64,000 bases of DNA from an uncultured Poribacteria bacterium (GCA_951813565.1 OX638351.1:4832001-4896000), one strand, 5' to 3'; positions 16,351 to 44,791 are shown, counted from the first letter of the stretch. Numbers and translations: made by a program. The notes: generated from the letters alone by a model not told the origin.

Positions 16351-17190
16351 TTAAGACAAGTTTTTTTGCTCAAATTCCACAGGTGTCAAATACCCTAACG
16401 CTGAATGAGGGCGTTTGTGATTATACACTTGCGTAATAAAATGCCCAATGCGGGCTCTCGCTTCGTGGATGTTCTCATAGGCGTTGAGATGAACTTCTTC
16501 TTCCTTGAGCGTGCGGATAAGTCTTTCAGCATATCCGTTCTCCCAAGGACACCCTCTTCGGGCGACTGAAATCTCTATCCCATGATACCTAAGCAGTGAG
16601 ATATACGCATCTGAAAGATACTGAACGCCTTGATCAGAATGATGGATCTCTGGAACACTTTGACATAATGCTGTCTCTAAGGGTTTCAACGCCAGAGATT
16701 GCGTCAAGTGTCGACTGATATGCCACCCCCTGATCATGCGAGTGAAGACATCCATGAGCAGACAAACATAGATGAAGTGTCCTTTGAGACGGACGTAGGT
16801 AATATCGCCTACCCAGACCTGATCACATCGGGAGACATCAAGGTTTTCAAGGCGATTACCCCAGGGACGCACACCCGCAACGGATGTCGTGGTTTGACAG
16901 ACACGTTTGACAGAAACCGAGAGGTTGGCGGATTTCATCAATCGGGCAACACGCTTATACCCGATGGTGTATCCGCCACGCACTAACAACTGTGTGATAC
17001 GTCTATATCCGTATGTTGGATATAGCAAAGATAACTTCTCTATTTCATCCCGGAGGCCCGCTTCACACGGGTCCTGCTTGGGGTGATAATAGAGATTGCT
17101 TCGGTTGAAACCGAGCGTCTCACATATCTGCCGAACCGAAAAGTCTATCCGTAATGCTTCAACCATTTCTCGCTGCTCCATCGGGGTCAA
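16351..17190 (-). CDS. IS3 transposase OrfB (integrase core)
   Basis: YGYRR, WVGDITY, HHSDQG, NGYAER, YN..RPHSAL; DDE intact. Confidence 0.93.
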   Translation of the reverse strand: MTPMEQREMVEALRIDFSVRQICETLGFNRSNLYYHPKQDPCEAGLRDEIEKLSLLYPTYGYRRITQLLVRGGYTIGYKRVARLMKSANLSVSVKRVCQTTTSVAGVRPWGNRLENLDVSRCDQVWVGDITYVRLKGHFIYVCLLMDVFTRMIRGWHISRHLTQSLALKPLETALCQSVPEIHHSDQGVQYLSDAYISLLRYHGIEISVARRGCPWENGYAERLIRTLKEEEVHLNAYENIHEARARIGHFITQVYNHKRPHSALGYLTPVEFEQKNLS

Positions 17191-17477
17191 CTCAAGTAAG
17201 TTGAGGCTTTTTTTTGGATGTCAAGTGCCAGGGTCAACCGCCCAACGAGTTGCTCAAGTTGGGCGATCCGATCCGCAGAGGCATCAGACTGTTTATCAGC
17301 GGGTTCAAAGAGGGTCGCCGCATTTTCAAGAAGCTGTCGCTTCCACTTTGAAAGTTGTTCATCGCTGAGGCTATGTCGCCGACACACTTCTGCTTGGGAA
17401 CTTTGACCGCTCAGTGCCTCAAGAACAACTTCGGCTTTAAACTCGGGAGTGAAGTTTCTTCGTTTTCGTTTCGCCAT
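17187..17477 (-). CDS. IS3 transposase OrfA (HTH)
   Basis: RRNFTPEFKAEVV...LSKWKRQ; A-run slippery site at 17207-17215. Confidence 0.9.
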   Translation of the reverse strand: MAKRKRRNFTPEFKAEVVLEALSGQSSQAEVCRRHSLSDEQLSKWKRQLLENAATLFEPADKQSDASADRIAQLEQLVGRLTLALDIQKKASTYLS

Positions 17478-17573
17478 CGGATACTCCTTTCAAGTAGATG
17501 GATATTATACCATAATCTTGTCTTAGAGAGTGGCCCGAATTTCCGGTGGCAGTACACACCCCTCATTTAATTG

Positions 17574-24484: not shown

Positions 24485-24772
24485 CTATTTCATGTAACGG
24501 ACTTCACCATCAACTTCAATGGTATCAACGATCGCCATGACAACGCCATCAACAGGTTTGTTGCTGGTCACACTCGTCTGACGCGCAGAACTTCCTGTTG
24601 CTATCAACACGATTTCACCGATGCCAGCACCGACCGCGTCAACGGCGACTGTGTATTTCCGCTCTAATTCTCCATCTAAATTCACATCTTGGACAATCAG
24701 CAATTTGCTACCGACAAGTTTCTCATCTTTCTGTGTAGCGACGACTGTCCCCGTGACCTTTCCAAGTATCAT
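24485..24772 (-). CDS. EutN/CcmL bacterial microcompartment vertex (BMC-P) protein
   Basis: MILGKVTGTVVAT.K...KLLIV...AVDAVGAGIGE.V...GSSAR...PVD..VMAIVD. Confidence 0.92.
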   Translation of the reverse strand: MILGKVTGTVVATQKDEKLVGSKLLIVQDVNLDGELERKYTVAVDAVGAGIGEIVLIATGSSARQTSVTSNKPVDGVVMAIVDTIEVDGEVRYMK

Positions 24773-24939: not shown

Positions 24940-25500
24940 TAACGTGAGTTTGATAAATCCCGTAGGGAATCAACACCGAATGCGCCTATGGCATTCGGTG
25001 GGGTAGAACGGAAATGGACAATAAAAACAGACCCTAAAGCAGGGTTATTTAGTTTTAAGAATTATCAGTTCCTGAGTTTTACTGTGAGTTTATATCGTCC
25101 GTCGGGTAGAGCTTGCGAAACCCATAGGCGTCAATTTAAGGATTTATTTCAGGTTTCACACATTTTAACCCAAACAACACCGCAACCCCGATTGTAGGGG
25201 CGGGTCTCTGTGCCCGCCCGTTGTTTAAATACATCAGATATGGCGGGGCACCAAATCAACGGTCCGAATGCCCTTTGGCATTCCCCGTCCGGCATGCTGC
25301 CAAATCAACGCTGAATGCCAAAAAGCGCATTTGGCGTTGATTCACTCCCACAAGAGCGTATATCCTTAAATTGACGGCTATGGGGCACCAAATCAACGGT
25401 ATGAATGCCTTATGGCATTCCCCGGGACCCCGCTCTACAGTGGAAAACGCCGCGTAATCATTGCAAATTGAACCTATGTAACCAAATATTTACACACCCA
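24940..25500. repeat. Nested MITE/REP/micro-element cluster
   Basis: Micro-elements at about 24967, 25252, 25301, 25389; cccataggcgtcaatttaag/cttaaattgacggctatgg IR pair; tttacacaccc MITE end at about 25499. Confidence 0.75.
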
Positions 25501-25617
25501 TGTGTTGAAAGAATATTTGACAAACGGGTGTGTTTGTGTTGCTATGTAGGTGGTGTGGCAACGGGTGTCACACGTTGTTCGATTGACCGCAGAGATCGTA
25601 TTTAATAGGAGGATCAC

Positions 25618-25745
25618 ATGGGCATGAAAATACTGACTGTCTTCGCTGTATGCTTTACATTTTCCACTGCTATAGCGTATGCGTATCAGGCAGAATTTGA
25701 ATATCGCGAAGGGGTTATGGTAGGTGTAGGTATCGGGCCTAGTGG
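25618..25745 (+). pseudogene. 5' stub of a secreted-protein gene truncated by REP/IS3 insertion
   Basis: RBS AGGAGG, signal peptide MGMKILTVFAVCFTFSTAIAYA, then runs into a GTAG REP pair at 25750-25813. Confidence 0.5.
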
Positions 25746-25851
25746 TTTTGTCGAGATTCGGAGATCGCTCCTACAGAACACCCTCTTTGTAGGAGGGAAC
25801 TTCGATTCCCGACTACTGACACGAATCGCAATTTTAGTGTAGACACTCCAC

Positions 25852-26939
25852 TAGCCTGAGTTATATCCTCATAATCATTGAGATGAACTTCTTCCTCTTT
25901 GAGAGTCCGGATGAGTCTTTCAGCATACCCGTTCTCCCACGGGCAGCCTCTCTTTGCTAATGAAATCTCAATCCCATGACGATTGAAAATGGAAATATAT
26001 GCCGTTGAAAGGGACTGAACACCTTGATCAGAATGATGGATCTCTGGCACGTTTTGGTGTCCTGCCTGTTCTAAAGGTTTCAGGGTTAGAGATGTGTTCA
26101 AATGGTGGCTCACCTGCCACCCTCTTATCATGCGAGTGAAGACATCCATAAGCACCGAAACATAGACGAAGCGTCTGTAGAGACGGACGGACGTTATACG
26201 CCAACCCAGACCTGATCGCATCAACAGATGTCAAGGGTTTCAAGCCGATTGACCCAGGGCTGTGGACCTTCAAGCGATCTCGTGGTTTGACAGCAACCGA
26301 GAGATTATCTGCTTTCATCAATCGGGCAACGCGGCGATACCCAACGGTGTATCCCAGACGCAGCAGCAAGTGCCTGATGCGCCTATACCCATATTTCGGA
26401 TAACGTCTACATAACTTCTCTATTTCCTCTCGGAGAACCTCTTGAGAAGGGGCACTTTTGGGGTGATAATAGAGAAGACTCCGGTTGAAACCGAGTGTCT
26501 CAGAAATCTCTCGAACCGAATAATCTGTTCAAAACGTTTCAATGAGTTCTCGTTTCTCAGACGCAGTTAGCTCAACCAAGTTGAGGCTTTTTTTCGATGT
26601 CTAACGCCACGGTCAATCTCCCAACGAGCTGCTCAAGGTGAGCAATCCGTTCCGCCGCGTCTTCAGAGGAAACCTTATTCCTGGATCCAAACACAGACGC
26701 TGCGTTTTCAACGAGTTGCTGCTTCCACTTTGAGAGTTGATCTTCGCTGAGGTTATGGCGGCGACACAGTTCTGCTTGTGAACTTTCACCGCTGAGTGCC
26801 TCAAGAACGATTTCCGCTTTAGACTCAGCGGTGAATCTTCTTCGTTTTCGTTTCGCCATCGGAGACTCCTTTCAAGTGAGATTGTTATTATATCACAATC
26901 TTGGTTTAGGGGGTGGCCCTAATTTCCGATGGCAGTACA
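25852..26939 (-). mobile_element. Degenerate IS3 copy (same family as 16312-17556), frameshifted and truncated
   Basis: orfA 26572-26859, orfB in fragments, end ...tggcagtaca at 26939; 3' end of orfB and the other IR missing. Confidence 0.88.
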
Positions 26940-30524: not shown

Positions 30525-30576
30525 TTTCGGAATTTTAGCATAATGGGTTTGTGGTGTCAAGAGAGTGATTGTTGGC

Positions 30577-30753
30577 GGGTGTGTAAAGTTTTTGACAAGA
30601 ACTGTCCAACTCTTATTGTAGGGGCGGGTCTCTGTGCCCGCCTGTTGCTTGGCACATCCTATGCAATGGCGGGGCACAGAGACCCGCCCTACAGTTGAAA
30701 ACGCGAAAAATTCTTCGAAAATTGAACCAACGTAACAAAATATCTACACACCC
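30577..30753 (+). mobile_element. GGGTGTGTA-ended MITE (unexpanded reference copy)
   Basis: gggtgtgtaaa...tctacacaccc, flanks attgttggc / attgttggg; internal GTAG REP pair. Confidence 0.85.
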
Positions 30754-30821
30754 ATTGTTGGGGTGTGGATGTTTTCGATTCAGACAATCAGGTGTGAGGT
30801 TTTAGAAACATTTGAGAATAA

Positions 30822-30876: not shown

Positions 30877-31863
30877 TTATTTTTTCTGTTGCAACTGACG
30901 TATCACCGCCTCTGCAAAGTCCGCATCCCAGTCTTCTGAGAGTGTGTCCCTAATGAGAGCAAGTTTCTCCGCTCTGTTGCCGGGCGTATCTTCTGATAAG
31001 ACGTTTTGGACATGCAAGGTAATAGCATTCTGCATCTGCTGCTTCTGGTTTTCAAGTGCCATCCGGTCTGACTCGGTAGGGTATAGATGTCCAAGTTCCT
31101 CTTGAGTGAGGTATGGAATTGCAAAAGCCCCAGGATATTTTTTTCTGATTTCCAATTTTAAATCAGACACCTCTCTTTTGAGATGTTCCTGCCATGTTTG
31201 CAACTTGGGTTCATCTTTCTCTGACGCCAAGTCCTTTTGAGGCGTTTGCGAAAAGCGGTTCCCCCGTCCCTCCATAAGTAGATTTCTATGAGAAGGATCA
31301 TCACGATCAGGTGCCTCATTCACGTACCTCTCGTCTGTGATGAGAGGCTCATTCTGTTTGAGCCATTGTTTGAGTCTCGCGAGTGCCTCCTGTTTCTGTT
31401 CTAAGTCGCGCGTCGCCAGCTTGCCGAAGGTATCCATTTCTTCACCAAAGCGCCGGTAATCTGCGATGGCTTTTTCTTTCTCGGCAATGAAGTTTTTGAG
31501 ATGCATCCCCCATTCTGGAGACAGTGGGTCTCCCCACTCTTTTAGATTCTCAAGTGCCATTGAAATCTCTTTTTTACTCCATTCTGGAGAGAGTCCTCTG
31601 TAACGCTTTTGGGTGTCTAAATCTAATTGAGATAAATACTCATCTTGACTGTTTTGCACCTCCGCAATAACATGTTCGATCAAAGACACGTCGGTAAGCA
31701 TAGGGTCTTTGGAGGTATCAGTGCGTTGAACTTGTTGATCTGTCGATGCACTTCTTTTTAGAGGCTTGCGTTCCTGGTCTCTCAAGGAGATAATCACCCC
31801 TATTACGACTAACATAAGAATGAGTAATCCACAAATGCTCGTTGTTCTCTGTCTTGTTGTCAT
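30877..31863 (-). CDS. Hypothetical membrane-anchored helical protein
   Basis: One N-terminal TM segment, charged helical remainder, RBS GGAG. Confidence 0.7.
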   Translation of the reverse strand: MTTRQRTTSICGLLILMLVVIGVIISLRDQERKPLKRSASTDQQVQRTDTSKDPMLTDVSLIEHVIAEVQNSQDEYLSQLDLDTQKRYRGLSPEWSKKEISMALENLKEWGDPLSPEWGMHLKNFIAEKEKAIADYRRFGEEMDTFGKLATRDLEQKQEALARLKQWLKQNEPLITDERYVNEAPDRDDPSHRNLLMEGRGNRFSQTPQKDLASEKDEPKLQTWQEHLKREVSDLKLEIRKKYPGAFAIPYLTQEELGHLYPTESDRMALENQKQQMQNAITLHVQNVLSEDTPGNRAEKLALIRDTLSEDWDADFAEAVIRQLQQKK

Positions 31864-32273
31864 AGATGTTCACCTCACTCCACAAAGACATGCATTCAGG
31901 ATCTTCGGGAGAAAGTTTTTTTATCTCCGCGAATATCCGCTTTATCTCTGTATTTGCAGCACTTACTGCGGCAGTTGCATCATAGTAATTGCTCCATGCG
32001 TTGGAGCGCTCAGTCTCCAGAGTGGCAATTTCTTCTGCTAACTCTATAATAGAATCAAGAATAAAATTGTAAAGTTTCACATTTTCATTATGATCTTCAA
32101 TTGCTTCTACCAAATCGTCATCGAGATCATCAAGCGTTTGCATGCCTGTAAGTATTCACAACCCAACTGATTGGATTTGCGTAAATACAAAAAACAATTA
32201 ATATTGGGGACAACAAGACCATCGCAATAAGGGTAAGAAATGAAAAGTCGCTCCGCTTCGTTTGATATTTCAT
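31718..32273 (-). pseudogene. Probably frameshifted secreted coiled-coil protein
   Basis: RBS plus ATG at 32273 gives a 47 aa signal-peptide ORF ending 32130; coiled-coil frame continues from about 32143. Confidence 0.45.
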
Positions 32274-32295
32274 TGAAGTTCTCCTTTTTCATGTT

Positions 32296-32496
32296 AGGTG
32301 CTAACCTAAAAGTTACACAAAACAGTTGATTTCATGCTACAATTAGGTTAGCGCTGCTATAGCTGGATTATGGCAGTGCAGCGTCGATCGGTGCTCGTAA
32401 CACCATCGGCGCACCTATAAACATTATAGGAGACTACCATTGAACGTAATTATTATACAAAACAAACAAAAAATTGTCAAGAAAAAAGCTAAGTTT
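32296..32496 (-). promoter_or_regulatory. Promoter plus structured 5' leader, copy 1
   Basis: TTGACA-17bp-TATAAT (32480-32452) then a three-way-junction-like fold; 201 bp near-identical to 34907-35107. Confidence 0.75.
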
Positions 32497-32706
32497 GGGT
32501 GTGTAAATATTTGGTTATATAGGTTCAATTTGCAATGATTACGCGGCGTTTCCCACTGTAGGGCGGGGTCCCTGTGCCCCGCCACTGCGCAGGACGTGCC
32601 ATGCAACGGGCAGGCACCAAATCAACGGTATGAATGCCTTATGGCATTCCCCAGAGACCCCCTACAATAAGAGTTGAGAAGATTGTAACCAAAACTTTAC
32701 ACACCC
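32497..32706 (-). mobile_element. GGGTGTGTA-ended MITE carrying a 35 bp micro-element (32618-32652)
   Basis: TIRs gggtgtgtaaa/tttacacaccc; aligns with 30577-30753 except for the insert. Confidence 0.82.
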
Positions 32707-32825
32707 AACCCATAAGTAATTTTACTACAATCAAATTACAAGGTTTATACAAAATTTCATTGCAGAAATTCTCATTGAATGAAGAGAAAACCAAAAACAC
32801 TCTTTTGTGAGATATCAGGTCAGAA

Positions 32826-33599
32826 TTACCGGATATTCTTGATTTGCGCCCATTGCGTTGTTAATTTACCAGCGGGTTCAATTGGGAAAAAAATGGCATC
32901 AATTTCGGCTAATTCATAGTCGCCGCCTACGCCGAAGTGCATACCCCATCCACCACCACGTTCACTGACCTTTATCATGATCAAATTATTTCCTTTTTTT
33001 AGATCAACCTTTAAATGATCTTGGAAGGTGTCTTCTTTGCCGAGACTCCGGTTCTCCGCATGGGTATGAACAACTTCGCCATTAACCCAAACCCTAACTG
33101 AGTCATCACTACTAACACCCATTGCTACGTTTGCTTGCGCTCTTTTCGTTTTGAGGACAATTAGCGCATAAGACGTTATATGATCTAACTCACCAGCCTC
33201 AAAACCTATTTTATTAACGAGAGCATTAATATCTCCGTTATTGGCAAGTGTGCCAGGTGTCCACTCATAATTACCAACTTCGTTGCCTTCTCTTGCACCG
33301 TGTTTGGCGATTTTCTCTTCGGTGACTTTGCCGTTGCTGGCTTCATCAAGTGAATCAACATAGGTAGAATTTGCACCACCTTGTCCACCTACAGTTTTAG
33401 CAATCATCCAGAGATACGTACCAAGAATTTTTTCTTGAGCATCAGCAGTCAGCGTCATCACTGTAAGACTCATCAGAAAAGCCGATCCTATTATACACAT
33501 TTTTCTGAACATTATATATAACCTCCTAAAATCAATACCTTCGCCAATTTTTGGAGTTAATTTGAATGGATAGGTAATGAATTCACCCATAGGTGTCAA
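32826..33599 (-). CDS. Secreted beta-sandwich (galactose-binding-like) protein; real start probably MFRKM
   Basis: Signal peptide ADA-QE, SDDSVRVWVNG, LKKGNN.IMIKV; tail PIEPAGKLTTQWAQIK. Confidence 0.7.
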   Translation of the reverse strand: MTPMGEFITYPFKLTPKIGEGIDFRRLYIMFRKMCIIGSAFLMSLTVMTLTADAQEKILGTYLWMIAKTVGGQGGANSTYVDSLDEASNGKVTEEKIAKHGAREGNEVGNYEWTPGTLANNGDINALVNKIGFEAGELDHITSYALIVLKTKRAQANVAMGVSSDDSVRVWVNGEVVHTHAENRSLGKEDTFQDHLKVDLKKGNNLIMIKVSERGGGWGMHFGVGGDYELAEIDAIFFPIEPAGKLTTQWAQIKNIR

Positions 33600-33714
33600 C
33601 TTATGGATTTATTTCAAGTTTTACGCAATTTAGCAAGCCTAACACCCAACGCAGCTGGACGCAAACATAATCCTTTAGAAATGGTATTTTCTACATTGTG
33701 AACCGTGATTATCT

Positions 33715-34713
33715 TCATTGCTTCATACGTTCAGCTTGTTTCAACCGACCCCAAAGAGTCGTCTGGGTGTCCACAGTCGGAGAAACGGAGAAAAAACTTT
33801 CGGGAACCCAGGCGGGAGAATTATCCCCAGGATGTTGTGTGATTTGCCGTGGCTCGCCCCCCTCGACAGAAACGATAAAAATGTGTTCCCACGCATTCGG
33901 GGTTCCCACAGGATCCACTCCTGCATCATAGGCATCGTAGGCAATCCACTTACCATCAGGGGACCACGCAGGATTGTAGCTCCAAGTCCCAAAAGGCGAG
34001 ATGCGGCGGGCGTTTTGTCCATCTGTATCCATGATGTAGATACCATCACCATCCTCACCATTACCGCTAACACAAGCAATCTGTTTTCCATCAGGCGACC
34101 AAGCAGGAAACCGAGGAAAAGGTACGCCCGGGTTTTTTATCTCTCTGAGATTTTTTCCATCTGCGTCCATCACATAGAGACGACCGATAGAATGGAAAGC
34201 AATTGATTGCCCATCTGGAGACCAAGTTATCTCATAGGTAAAATGTCCTTGGTTAGTAAGCCTCTGTAGATTCTCGCCGTTGATATCAATTTTGTAGATA
34301 TCATATAGCAAGTTTAGCACGTTTATCGGGGATACAAAAGCTATCCAATTTCCATCAGGTGACCAGGCAGGAGAAGAAGGTGACCAGAAAGGATCAAAAT
34401 CGTCCTCCGGATGGTTTATCAACCGACGCACCTCAGCTTCATTGAATGTCTTAATATAGATTTCGAAATTTCCATCACGGTTCGACGCAAAAGCAAAAGA
34501 ACGCCCATCTGGTGCCCACGTTGCGCAACAGTCCTCTGCGGGATGGTTTGTTAGGTTGCGTAGATTCTTGCCGTTTGTATCAATGATGTAGATGTCAGTT
34601 TGCCCTGTCCGGTTAGAATTGAAAGAAATATACGGAGCTCCCCAAGCGTTTACGGCAAGCAGAAAACAACTGAACAGGAATGTCATTCCAAACAACATAT
34701 ATGTGCGTTTCAT
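33715..34713 (-). CDS. Secreted TolB-like PD40/WD40 beta-propeller protein
   Basis: Multiple PAWSPDG repeats; tail SVSPTVDTQTTLWGRLK. Confidence 0.88.
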   Translation of the reverse strand: MKRTYMLFGMTFLFSCFLLAVNAWGAPYISFNSNRTGQTDIYIIDTNGKNLRNLTNHPAEDCCATWAPDGRSFAFASNRDGNFEIYIKTFNEAEVRRLINHPEDDFDPFWSPSSPAWSPDGNWIAFVSPINVLNLLYDIYKIDINGENLQRLTNQGHFTYEITWSPDGQSIAFHSIGRLYVMDADGKNLREIKNPGVPFPRFPAWSPDGKQIACVSGNGEDGDGIYIMDTDGQNARRISPFGTWSYNPAWSPDGKWIAYDAYDAGVDPVGTPNAWEHIFIVSVEGGEPRQITQHPGDNSPAWVPESFFSVSPTVDTQTTLWGRLKQAERMKQ

Positions 34714-34906
34714 TTTTTATCTCCTGGATAATCACTATCAAGAATAGCGAGTTGTTAATAGTTTGACGTGCGAATTAAACACAATACAGCAGTTATTACA
34801 AATTTCGGAGGACGGAGGCAAATTTAAAGACTGTCAGTTGCCAATGATATGTAACTTCTAAAATTATTTATCAAACTCACCTTCATCTTTAGGTTTCTCC
34901 TTATGA

Positions 34907-35107
34907 AGGTGCTAACCTAAAAGTTACACAAAACAGGTGGTTTCATGCTACAATTAGGTTAGCGCTGCTATAGCTGGATTATGGCAGTGCAGCGTCGATT
35001 GGTGTTTACGCCACCATCGGCGCACCTATAAACATTATAGGAGACTACCATTGAACGTAATTATTATACAAAACAAACAAAAAATTCTCAATAAAAAAGC
35101 TAAGTTT
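34907..35107 (-). promoter_or_regulatory. Promoter plus structured 5' leader, copy 2
   Basis: TTGAGA-17bp-TATAAT and the same stems as copy 1; followed by RBS AAGGAG and ATG at 34886. Confidence 0.72.
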
Positions 35108-43902: not shown

Positions 43903-43989
43903 ATGGGTTTCTCCTGATAGCGTTCAATAGTCATTGTGCGGTTTATGATAGCGAATTTTGGCGGTTTTGTCAAGATAGAATTGGCTATC

Positions 43990-44621
43990 GGGTGTGTAAA
44001 GTTTTTGTAGAAATCCGCACAACTCCTATTGTAGGGGCGGGTCTCCGGGGAATGCCAAAAGGCATTCGGACCCGGTGAATGACTAAAGACGAATGCGCCA
44101 AATCAACGGTATGAATGCCTGCTGGCATTCCCCGTATGGCATTCGCCATGGTTCATACCGTTGATTTCTTGATTTGGTGCCTGCCCGTTGCATAGCACGT
44201 CCTGCGCAGTGGCGGGGCACAGGAACCCCGCCCATAGGCGTCAATTTAAGCACACAATTACCAGATTGCCTCTTGTGGGAGGGAAACCTTATAAGCCCGA
44301 TTTATATGTATTTATCGGGGTTGAAAACCCGACAAATGCCAAAAAGCGCATTTGGCGTTGATTTGGCAGCATGCCACACGCGCATGCTGCGTTGATTTGG
44401 ACAAATGCCAAAAGCAGAATCAACGCCGAGCGCGCGTATGGCACTCGTCGCATTTGGCGTTGATTTGGCAGCATGCCGGACGCGCATGCTGCGTTGATTC
44501 ACTCCCACAAGAGGGTATATCCTTAAATTGACGGCTATGGGCACAGGGACCCCGCTCTACAGTGGAAAACGCCGCGTAATCATTGCAAATTGAACCTATG
44601 TAACCAAATATTTACACACCC
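43990..44621 (+). mobile_element. GGGTGTGTA-ended MITE expanded by nested insertions
   Basis: TIRs plus perfect 9 bp duplication ttggctatc (43981-43989 / 44622-44630). Confidence 0.9.
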
Positions 44622-44791
44622 TTGGCTATCGGCAGGGTTATTCAGTTTTCAACAAGCCACTTGCTCTCTGTCGTTTCGCATGAGTTAGGAATTACCCTCA
44701 CGCAGCAAAGTGTTAGCAACAAAACCAACGAAATACCGATCTCAACAGAGATCCTCAAGACCTTTGATGTGAAGGGTAAAGTCATCACAAC

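Follow-up and report, generated by a model that had tools for sequence, protein, structure and literature searches.

In a window of 64,000 nucleotides from an uncultured Poribacteria bacterium (GCA_951813565.1 OX638351.1:4832001-4896000; "the window" denotes this whole stretch), a 201-nt repeat is present in two copies, at 32296-32496 and 34907-35107, which are 95% identical. Judging from sequence comparison, this element is probably a cis-antisense control module with loop-coded kissing recognition and not a riboswitch. Two facing promoter-like sites would give rise to a long mRNA leader of secreted-protein genes and, from the opposite strand, to an antisense RNA of about 95 nt with three hairpins, which would recognize the leader via two 7-nt kissing loops that differ between loci. 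Both strands would be transcribed and loop-loop contact would start the duplex, such that a copy would ignore antisense RNAs bearing other loops, while tandem copies would share one antisense pool and be switched together. The antisense/leader family itself is real and apparently uncatalogued.

Strand, fold, and promoter-like sites of the element

An earlier note on this DNA had read the repeat as a minus-strand promoter followed by a structured leader, possibly a switch. Much of this description holds. The sigma70-like sites are present: TTGACA-17-TATAAT in copy 1 (32480..32452) agrees with the consensus at 12 of 12 positions, and copy 2 carries TTGAGA-17-TATAAT. The copies differ as described, at 5 nt in the loop of the hairpin designated P3, at one base of its stem, and at 2 nt within the last stem. 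Rfam returned no gathering-score match in the window and nothing below an E value of 1.5 over 32200-32550, and the idea of a conserved, covarying, promoter-linked regulatory leader without an Rfam match is supported by homologue search and covariation.

The strand assignment, however, has to be revised. On the plus strand, a 96-nt segment is predicted to form three hairpins in a row (-40.3 kcal/mol, z -5.1), whereas the minus-strand segment reaches about -30 kcal/mol (z -1.7). Two features had been overlooked, a hairpin at plus 32351-32379 (stem-loop I) and an opposing promoter-like site within the last stem (plus 32314-32343). In the alignment, C.A oppositions conserved in P3 and in the overlooked hairpin on the minus strand become U.G pairs on the plus strand. 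Read on that strand in 102 sequences, the cells of stem-loop I comprise 840 Watson-Crick pairs, 176 G.U, 24 A.C, 50 other combinations, and 32 gaps, and a further U.G pair of stem-loop II, outside the model, is found in 43 of 53 sequences. Given the fold scores, the U.G pairs, and the conserved opposing promoter-like site, we place the main structured RNA on the plus strand. The three-way junction of P1, P2, and P3 proposed earlier is indeed the minimum-energy fold of the 96-nt 5' segment of the minus strand, but a weak one by the z score given above. Likewise, the suggested pairing of AGGUGC with GCACCU does appear, together with a UCUCCU/AGGAGA closure, in the minimum-energy fold of the 171-nt minus-strand leader (z -5.2), where it replaces the junction.

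Covariation was assessed in two alignments. The first, made with MAFFT, comprised 53 of the 62 sequences available at that point; pairing reached 93.2%, and 12 of 19 pairs had two-sided changes. The model-fitted alignment of 102 sequences, which leans toward structure, gave 93.8% and 17 of 19 pairs. In both, none of 500 shuffles scored as high, a control that overstates significance since the sequences are related. The covariance model covered the plus-strand RNA together with the 22 nt before it and left out stem-loop III. By fold and covariation, the antisense strand forms conserved stem-loops with exposed short loops.

The interior of the last stem, here called P5, reads TG-n-TAnAAT on the plus strand, 7 to 9 nt before the first pair of stem-loop I. 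The -10 motif was found in 93 of the 102 model-aligned sequences, with the TG in 86. Because this set had been picked with a model containing the motif, the test was repeated on 118 distinct elements that had been collected solely by the stem-loop I pattern, which allowed loops of 6 to 9 nt. Here, the -10 motif was present in 111 elements and the TG in 107, against a background of 0.8% at random positions, and the remaining seven carried near-variants. A promoter tool reported both facing sites in the window (2 found versus 1.2 expected by chance). As in cis-antisense systems, an opposing promoter that overlaps the 5' leader is present as a sequence motif. Of 127 homologues, 59 have a recognizable sense promoter, where 12.6 would be expected, and the median overlap is 124 nt. 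P5 pairs are biased on the minus strand (76 G.U versus 8 A.C in the 89 of 102 elements with P5), as in a sense-strand RNA helix; this bias is opposite to that of stem-loop I, suggesting that the sense RNA is structured too. A 198-nt contig from a sequencing run that is merely guessed to be RNA covers a homologue; strand and ends are not shown, and it is not used as evidence.

Loop variation and its matching in tandem copies

The loops are the least conserved part of the element. Loop I is 7 nt long in 112 of 118 elements and has 86 distinct sequences, a natural library of variants on one scaffold. Loop II could be parsed in 96 elements, with 72 distinct sequences, although some subfamilies have longer loops. 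In the 72 seven-base examples of loop II, position 2 is U in 90% and position 6 is A in 67%, which implies that many loops of the sense strand also have U at position 2. In four sets of paralogs, loop identity was 0.48, 0.51, 0.77, and 0.48, compared with 0.90 to 0.94 for the rest of the element. For paralogs of this genome, loop identity was 0.55 versus 0.86 at fourfold-degenerate sites of the downstream gene (six pairs) and 0.36 versus 0.94 (one pair). Loops therefore seem to change faster than neutral sites, although the sample is small, and the comparison leaves out the rows of genome G091 and two values for the next 60 nt, where indels put the sequences out of register. Distinct loop pairs within single genomes numbered 11 of 12, 22 of 24, 12 of 12, 9 of 9, 9 of 10, 8 of 8, 8 of 8, 6 of 6, and 4 of 4.

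Tandem copies behave differently. In nine tandem pairs, nonindependent and drawn from seven related genomes, loop I was identical in all nine and loop II in seven, compared with 5 of 36 and 2 of 36 between loci. Scaffold differences, in contrast, were similar within tandem pairs (6.3) and between loci (5.8 to 7.3). Of the two pairs in which loop II is mismatched, one is that of the window, whose copies are separated by other genes. Loop II is altered in both tandem copies in genomes G014 and G017, which differ from each other at 4 of its 7 nt, while position-specific differences in the scaffold, lying 3 nt away on one side and 7 nt away on the other, have been preserved. The matching suggests that recognition also occurs between neighbors or that loops are rewritten by short-patch conversion. 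Contigs of other runs show variant loop II letters and may represent paralogs.

No second loop-matching site was found near the element or at a common spacing in the genome, which leaves the complementary strand as the only consistent partner. A pseudoknot between loops I and II was also considered and rejected, the mean run being 2.30 versus 2.25 after permutation.

If the proposed module is correct, it would represent a chromosomal antisense family that controls diverse exported proteins one locus at a time, in a lineage of uncultured symbionts in which RNase III was not found. Kissing-loop specificity would be diversifying faster than neutral sites across many paralogs and yet be kept matched in tandem copies. 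A shortage of natural orthogonal antisense attenuators has been called a roadblock in the available text of PMC3753616.

Regulatory output and competing explanations

The output of the module would most likely be repression of the downstream genes, through a translation block or through termination, either Rho-dependent or of the attenuator type, rather than through cleavage by RNase III. This is the weakest step of the proposal, as the folding tests do not resolve it. Rho is present in 21 of 21 genomes. RNase III (PF00636), on the other hand, was not detected in any of the 41 genomes of the family or the 139 relatives in families f1 to f4, nor in this genome, but 9 of the 11 genomes from the other five families have it. 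Such a distribution likely reflects lineage-wide loss across four Poribacteria families.

Several observations weigh against the antisense module, the lack of a detectable RNase III and the nonindependence of the tandem pairs among them. Both promoters are sequence motifs rather than measured starts, and 68 of the 127 homologues have no detected sense promoter. The eight modeled pairs of stem-loop II show little strand bias (32 G.U, 20 A.C), and a search of the window for an intrinsic terminator of the antisense RNA found none. When the antisense-paired region was blocked in 31 leaders, hand-picked for a clear promoter, accessibility of the ribosome site was unchanged in 19, raised in 9, and lowered in 3, so that translational repression is not supported; in the short leader of the window type it rose from 0.29 to 0.49. 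Terminator-like hairpins after P5 are only twofold enriched (28 of 102 versus 13.8 expected), and pairing between the 5' arm and distal sequence shows no cognate preference (35 of 69 better than shuffled).

A bolder version of the antisense module is conceivable. Each genome might contain about 4 to 24 mutually orthogonal RNA toggles. With promoters facing each other and with sense and antisense RNAs annihilating one another loop-specifically, in the absence of RNase III, each secreted-effector locus would independently be held ON or OFF and the secreted repertoire would undergo phase variation, the 7-nt loop barcodes being rewritten by a dedicated short-patch mechanism. We regard this version as speculative and rather unlikely. 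Models of bistability from convergent transcription do exist, as far as the available texts of PMC3134472 and PMC4519249 describe them.

How does the element relate to known antisense systems? CopA/CopT, ColE1 RNA I, and FinP/traJ are loop-loop antisense regulators of plasmids, with U-turn-type loops and loop-coded specificity groups. They serve the replication or conjugation of one plasmid, whereas here there is no phage or plasmid match, the recurrent downstream clusters shown contain no rep or tra gene, and terminator-like hairpins were seen in a minority of elements. The phage C4 antisense RNA pairs with separate same-strand target sites and has a closing stem. It resembles the element in that a promoter is followed by a small structured RNA in which two short variable loops set specificity, but the hairpins of the element are consecutive and no same-strand target lies near it. 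Membership in the C4 family (RF01695, from phages P1 and P7, listed in the available part of PMC2864571) was rejected, as there was no Rfam model match and no loop-complementary same-strand site nearby. The pT181 plasmid attenuator, in the available text of PMC3753616, likewise has a counter-transcribed hairpin RNA lying over the leader and kissing-hairpin recognition.

The chromosomal IsoA/AapA system of Helicobacter pylori, insofar as the available text of PMC5416894 describes it, also occupies several loci, sometimes in multiple copies, and has a two-stem-loop antisense RNA complementary to the 5' leader. Its paralogs share a fold but differ in their loops, as exemplified by IsoA1 and IsoA3, each of which represses its cognate mRNA only, through cognate-only kissing loops. 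There are clear differences. AapA is a 30-residue toxin with the antisense promoter inside its coding sequence, whereas the Poribacteria promoter-like site lies in a noncoding hairpin; the Poribacteria elements precede unrelated exported proteins of about 50 to 350 residues and reach copy numbers of up to 24; and the IsoA/AapA duplex is cut by RNase III, which was not found in the Poribacteria family. Membership was rejected on the latter ground and because no conserved hydrophobic toxin frame of about 30 codons is present, only a 9-codon frame without a ribosome site. On the best reading of these comparisons, the element would work like IsoA/AapA and the plasmid kissing-loop regulators while belonging to neither IsoA/AapA nor C4.

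Alternatively, the plus-strand RNA might be a trans-acting two-loop guide, C4-like or bridge-RNA-like, with separate RNA or DNA targets elsewhere, possibly outside the genome. Its own promoter, a hairpin starting at +2, and two variable 7-nt loops on a fixed scaffold would suit such a role, and matched tandem loops would be expected if both copies recognized one external partner. We nonetheless consider a guide unlikely: loop 7-mers occur at no consistent place within -800/+1200 nt, 5- or 6-mer matches were not enriched around 46 elements, whether in the 400 nt upstream or in the 450 nt downstream, and two-loop sites have no common spacing in this genome. The most suggestive case (4 of 8 at one spacing versus 4 of 48 noncognate) was the best of about 400 choices of spacing and orientation and failed three of three tests in G017. 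The recurrent downstream clusters shown also include no recombinase or nuclease. These target searches were confined to exact 5- to 7-mer matches and did not extend to phage and host sequence. An IS110 bridge RNA or other DNA-targeting guide was rejected, with no loop match to flanks or genome at that level and no associated recombinase or nuclease.

It is quite unlikely that the opposing promoter acts by transcriptional interference alone, with hairpins that stabilize or end a short transcript and loops devoid of specificity. The facing promoter-like sites, about 95 to 135 nt apart, the want of a clear RNA-level expression platform, and the apparent absence of RNase III would all fit, but interference predicts neither the mostly fixed 7-nt loops with their constrained position 2 nor divergence faster than at synonymous sites or tandem matching. 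It appears very unlikely that the element is a nonautonomous mobile repeat or a structure of single-stranded DNA, spreading together with a cargo of secreted-protein genes, whose promoters and hairpins are by-products. Copies do lie at unrelated loci among repeats resembling repetitive extragenic palindromes (REPs), and in one subfamily about 500 nt of flanking sequence is conserved and often no gene follows directly. However, strand-specific G.U bias is seen on both strands, the -10 motif is kept at fixed spacing across subfamilies with differing surroundings, 0 of 118 copies are inverted, and exported-protein genes are oriented on one side only. An invertible promoter was rejected on the same count of inverted copies, and contigs of six runs contained no strand-switch joint over either element. 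Finally, a ligand-binding riboswitch formed by the minus-strand junction, the idea behind the earlier note, is highly improbable. Folding does predict the junction for the 96-nt segment, and the window type offers alternative pairings close to the ribosome site, but P1 was detected in just 42 of the 102 homologues and shows no strand bias (14 G.U, 15 A.C), the fold score is low, the loops are hypervariable, the downstream genes share no pathway, and the opposing promoter-like site is conserved. A SAM-V match (18 bits, gathering threshold 41, E 1.8) does not exceed chance level, and copy 2 has ACCUG in place of its AACUG core.

Downstream genes, distribution, and surroundings

On the minus strand, 86 of 102 elements are followed within 450 nt by an open reading frame (ORF) led by a ribosome site. 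A hydrophobic N terminus was predicted for 76 of these 86 first ORFs, compared with 757 of 2,086 genome-wide; starts were picked automatically and are wrong for the broken gene of the window, which has a 2-nt gap near 32155 and lacks about 296 nt near 31878 (Table 1). The products of 200 ORFs fall into many unrelated clusters, with small cysteine-rich or coiled-coil exported proteins, and the recurrent clusters include a membrane-anchored partner (37 of 200) and PD40 propellers (18 of 200). Export signals are the only common feature; no metabolic or pathway theme emerged. Ten first and second genes matched no informative family, nor, apart from a TolB-like one, did the nine genes of another test; first-gene products had no family match beyond generic coiled coils and PD40, and the ESM Atlas gave unnamed clusters only (0.78 to 0.79). 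The gene arrangement may recall effector/immunity pairs, although no family match among the tested products supports this. At seven loci per genome (L067-L073 in G000; L115-L119, L124, and L127 in G017), a gene for a cysteine-rich exported peptide of 73 to 89 residues and then one for a membrane-anchored partner lie behind the leader. Genes on the other side of the element have no orientation bias (48 same, 47 divergent, 7 none of 102), and a leader for the divergent neighbor was rejected on these counts. A conserved leader peptide was rejected as well, as some copies contain only a 9-codon frame without a ribosome site.

Table 1. Predicted features of the two copies and of the adjacent genes (positions in the window)
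Feature	Position	Strand	Details
Antisense promoter-like site, copy 1	32314..32343	+	TACACA, 18 nt, TG 32335-32336, TACAAT 32338-32343
Antisense promoter-like site, copy 2	34925..34954	+	TACACA ... TG-C-TACAAT; same as copy 1
Predicted antisense RNA, copy 1 (~95 nt, three hairpins)	32350..32445	+	From fold and covariation
Stem-loop I, 11 bp	32351..32379	+	Variable 7-nt loop GCUGGAU 32362-32368
Stem-loop II (P3 of the earlier note), 12 bp	32381..32412	+	Variable 7-nt loop CUCGUAA 32394-32400
Stem-loop III (P2 of the earlier note)	32414..32430	+	CCUAUAA/UUAUAGG; varies between subfamilies, absent in one
Predicted antisense RNA, copy 2	34961..35056	+	Loop I GCUGGAU 34973-34979 as in copy 1; loop II UUUACGC 35005-35011 differs
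Sense promoter-like site, copy 1	32452..32480	-	TTGACA-17-TATAAT; predicted start near 32445
Sense promoter-like site, copy 2	35063..35091	-	TTGAGA-17-TATAAT
Predicted sense 5' leader, copy 1 (172 nt)	32274..32445	-	Ends at start codon 32273; Shine-Dalgarno AAGGAG 32286-32281
P5 hairpin, sense strand	32298..32354	-	Two 12-nt arms around antisense promoter; 89/102 homologues
First gene, copy 1	31864..32273	-	Signal-peptide-like N terminus; broken relative to intact homologue L008:1722-2423
Second gene, copy 1	30877..31863	-	328 aa, hydrophobic N-terminal segment, no Pfam/NCBIfam match
Gene after copy 2	33715..34713	-	PD40/TolB-like beta-propeller, hydrophobic N terminus; 20-codon ORF before it at the usual first-gene position
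Second gene between copies	32826..33599	-	Hydrophobic N terminus; weak RhaB_D2 match below Pfam cut-off

The family is widespread within a narrow lineage. By blastn, 27 of 36 genomes of the genus gave matches, some to the promoter only, and a profile search found 12 copies in this genome. In a phylum-wide draw, the covariance model matched 577 times, with hits in 92 of the 99 genomes of Poribacteria family f1 and in 0 of 51 genomes of eight other families; only 23 candidates were scored per genome, so that copy numbers may be underestimates. More complete searches found 24 copies in G017 and 4 to 12 in seven other genomes. All 80 listed of at least 121 motif-bearing records are titled Candidatus Poribacteria or "uncultured bacterium," and 13 metagenome contigs matched the element. 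One exact stem-loop I pattern had no match in viral contigs, and blastn found none in phage and plasmid collections. Rfam gave no gathering-score match at 20 homologous loci; scans by E value returned chance-level matches only over the window element and none over the elements in 14 further loci. Our survey of the Poribacteria literature on RNA motifs and antisense RNAs, limited in reach, yielded no description of the element; a motif named "Poribacteria-1" has reportedly been described. The word Poribacteria does not occur in the main text of PMC5737381 as available.

About five subfamilies can be told apart by eye, differing in the 5' and 3' parts of the leader. One (L018, L023, L042, L044-L049, L054, L057-L062) has about 500 nt conserved around the core and often no gene directly behind, as if it were spreading without cargo. 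A divergent subfamily (L129, L181, L182, L184, L185) keeps the -10 motif and stem-loops I to III but has no clear P5; another strong minus-strand hairpin follows, and several copies have no nearby ORF. In G014 and G017, the upstream tandem copy has a duplicated P5 and hence a second antisense promoter-like site (L010:2302-2400 and L011:2301-2400).

Elsewhere in the window, nested REP-like and small hairpin repeats (families D5, D9, D10, D15, D18, and D19) occupy 32497-32710, 25120-25502, 30555-30756, and 43968-44624. One REP-like block adjoins copy 1, and its summed contig depth in other runs was very high. Two related regions at 16469-17495 and 25739-26877, 74 to 83% identical, probably encode IS3-like transposases, a family assignment made from translation. 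An ORF at 24485-24772 appears to resemble a microcompartment vertex protein (EutN/CcmL-like).

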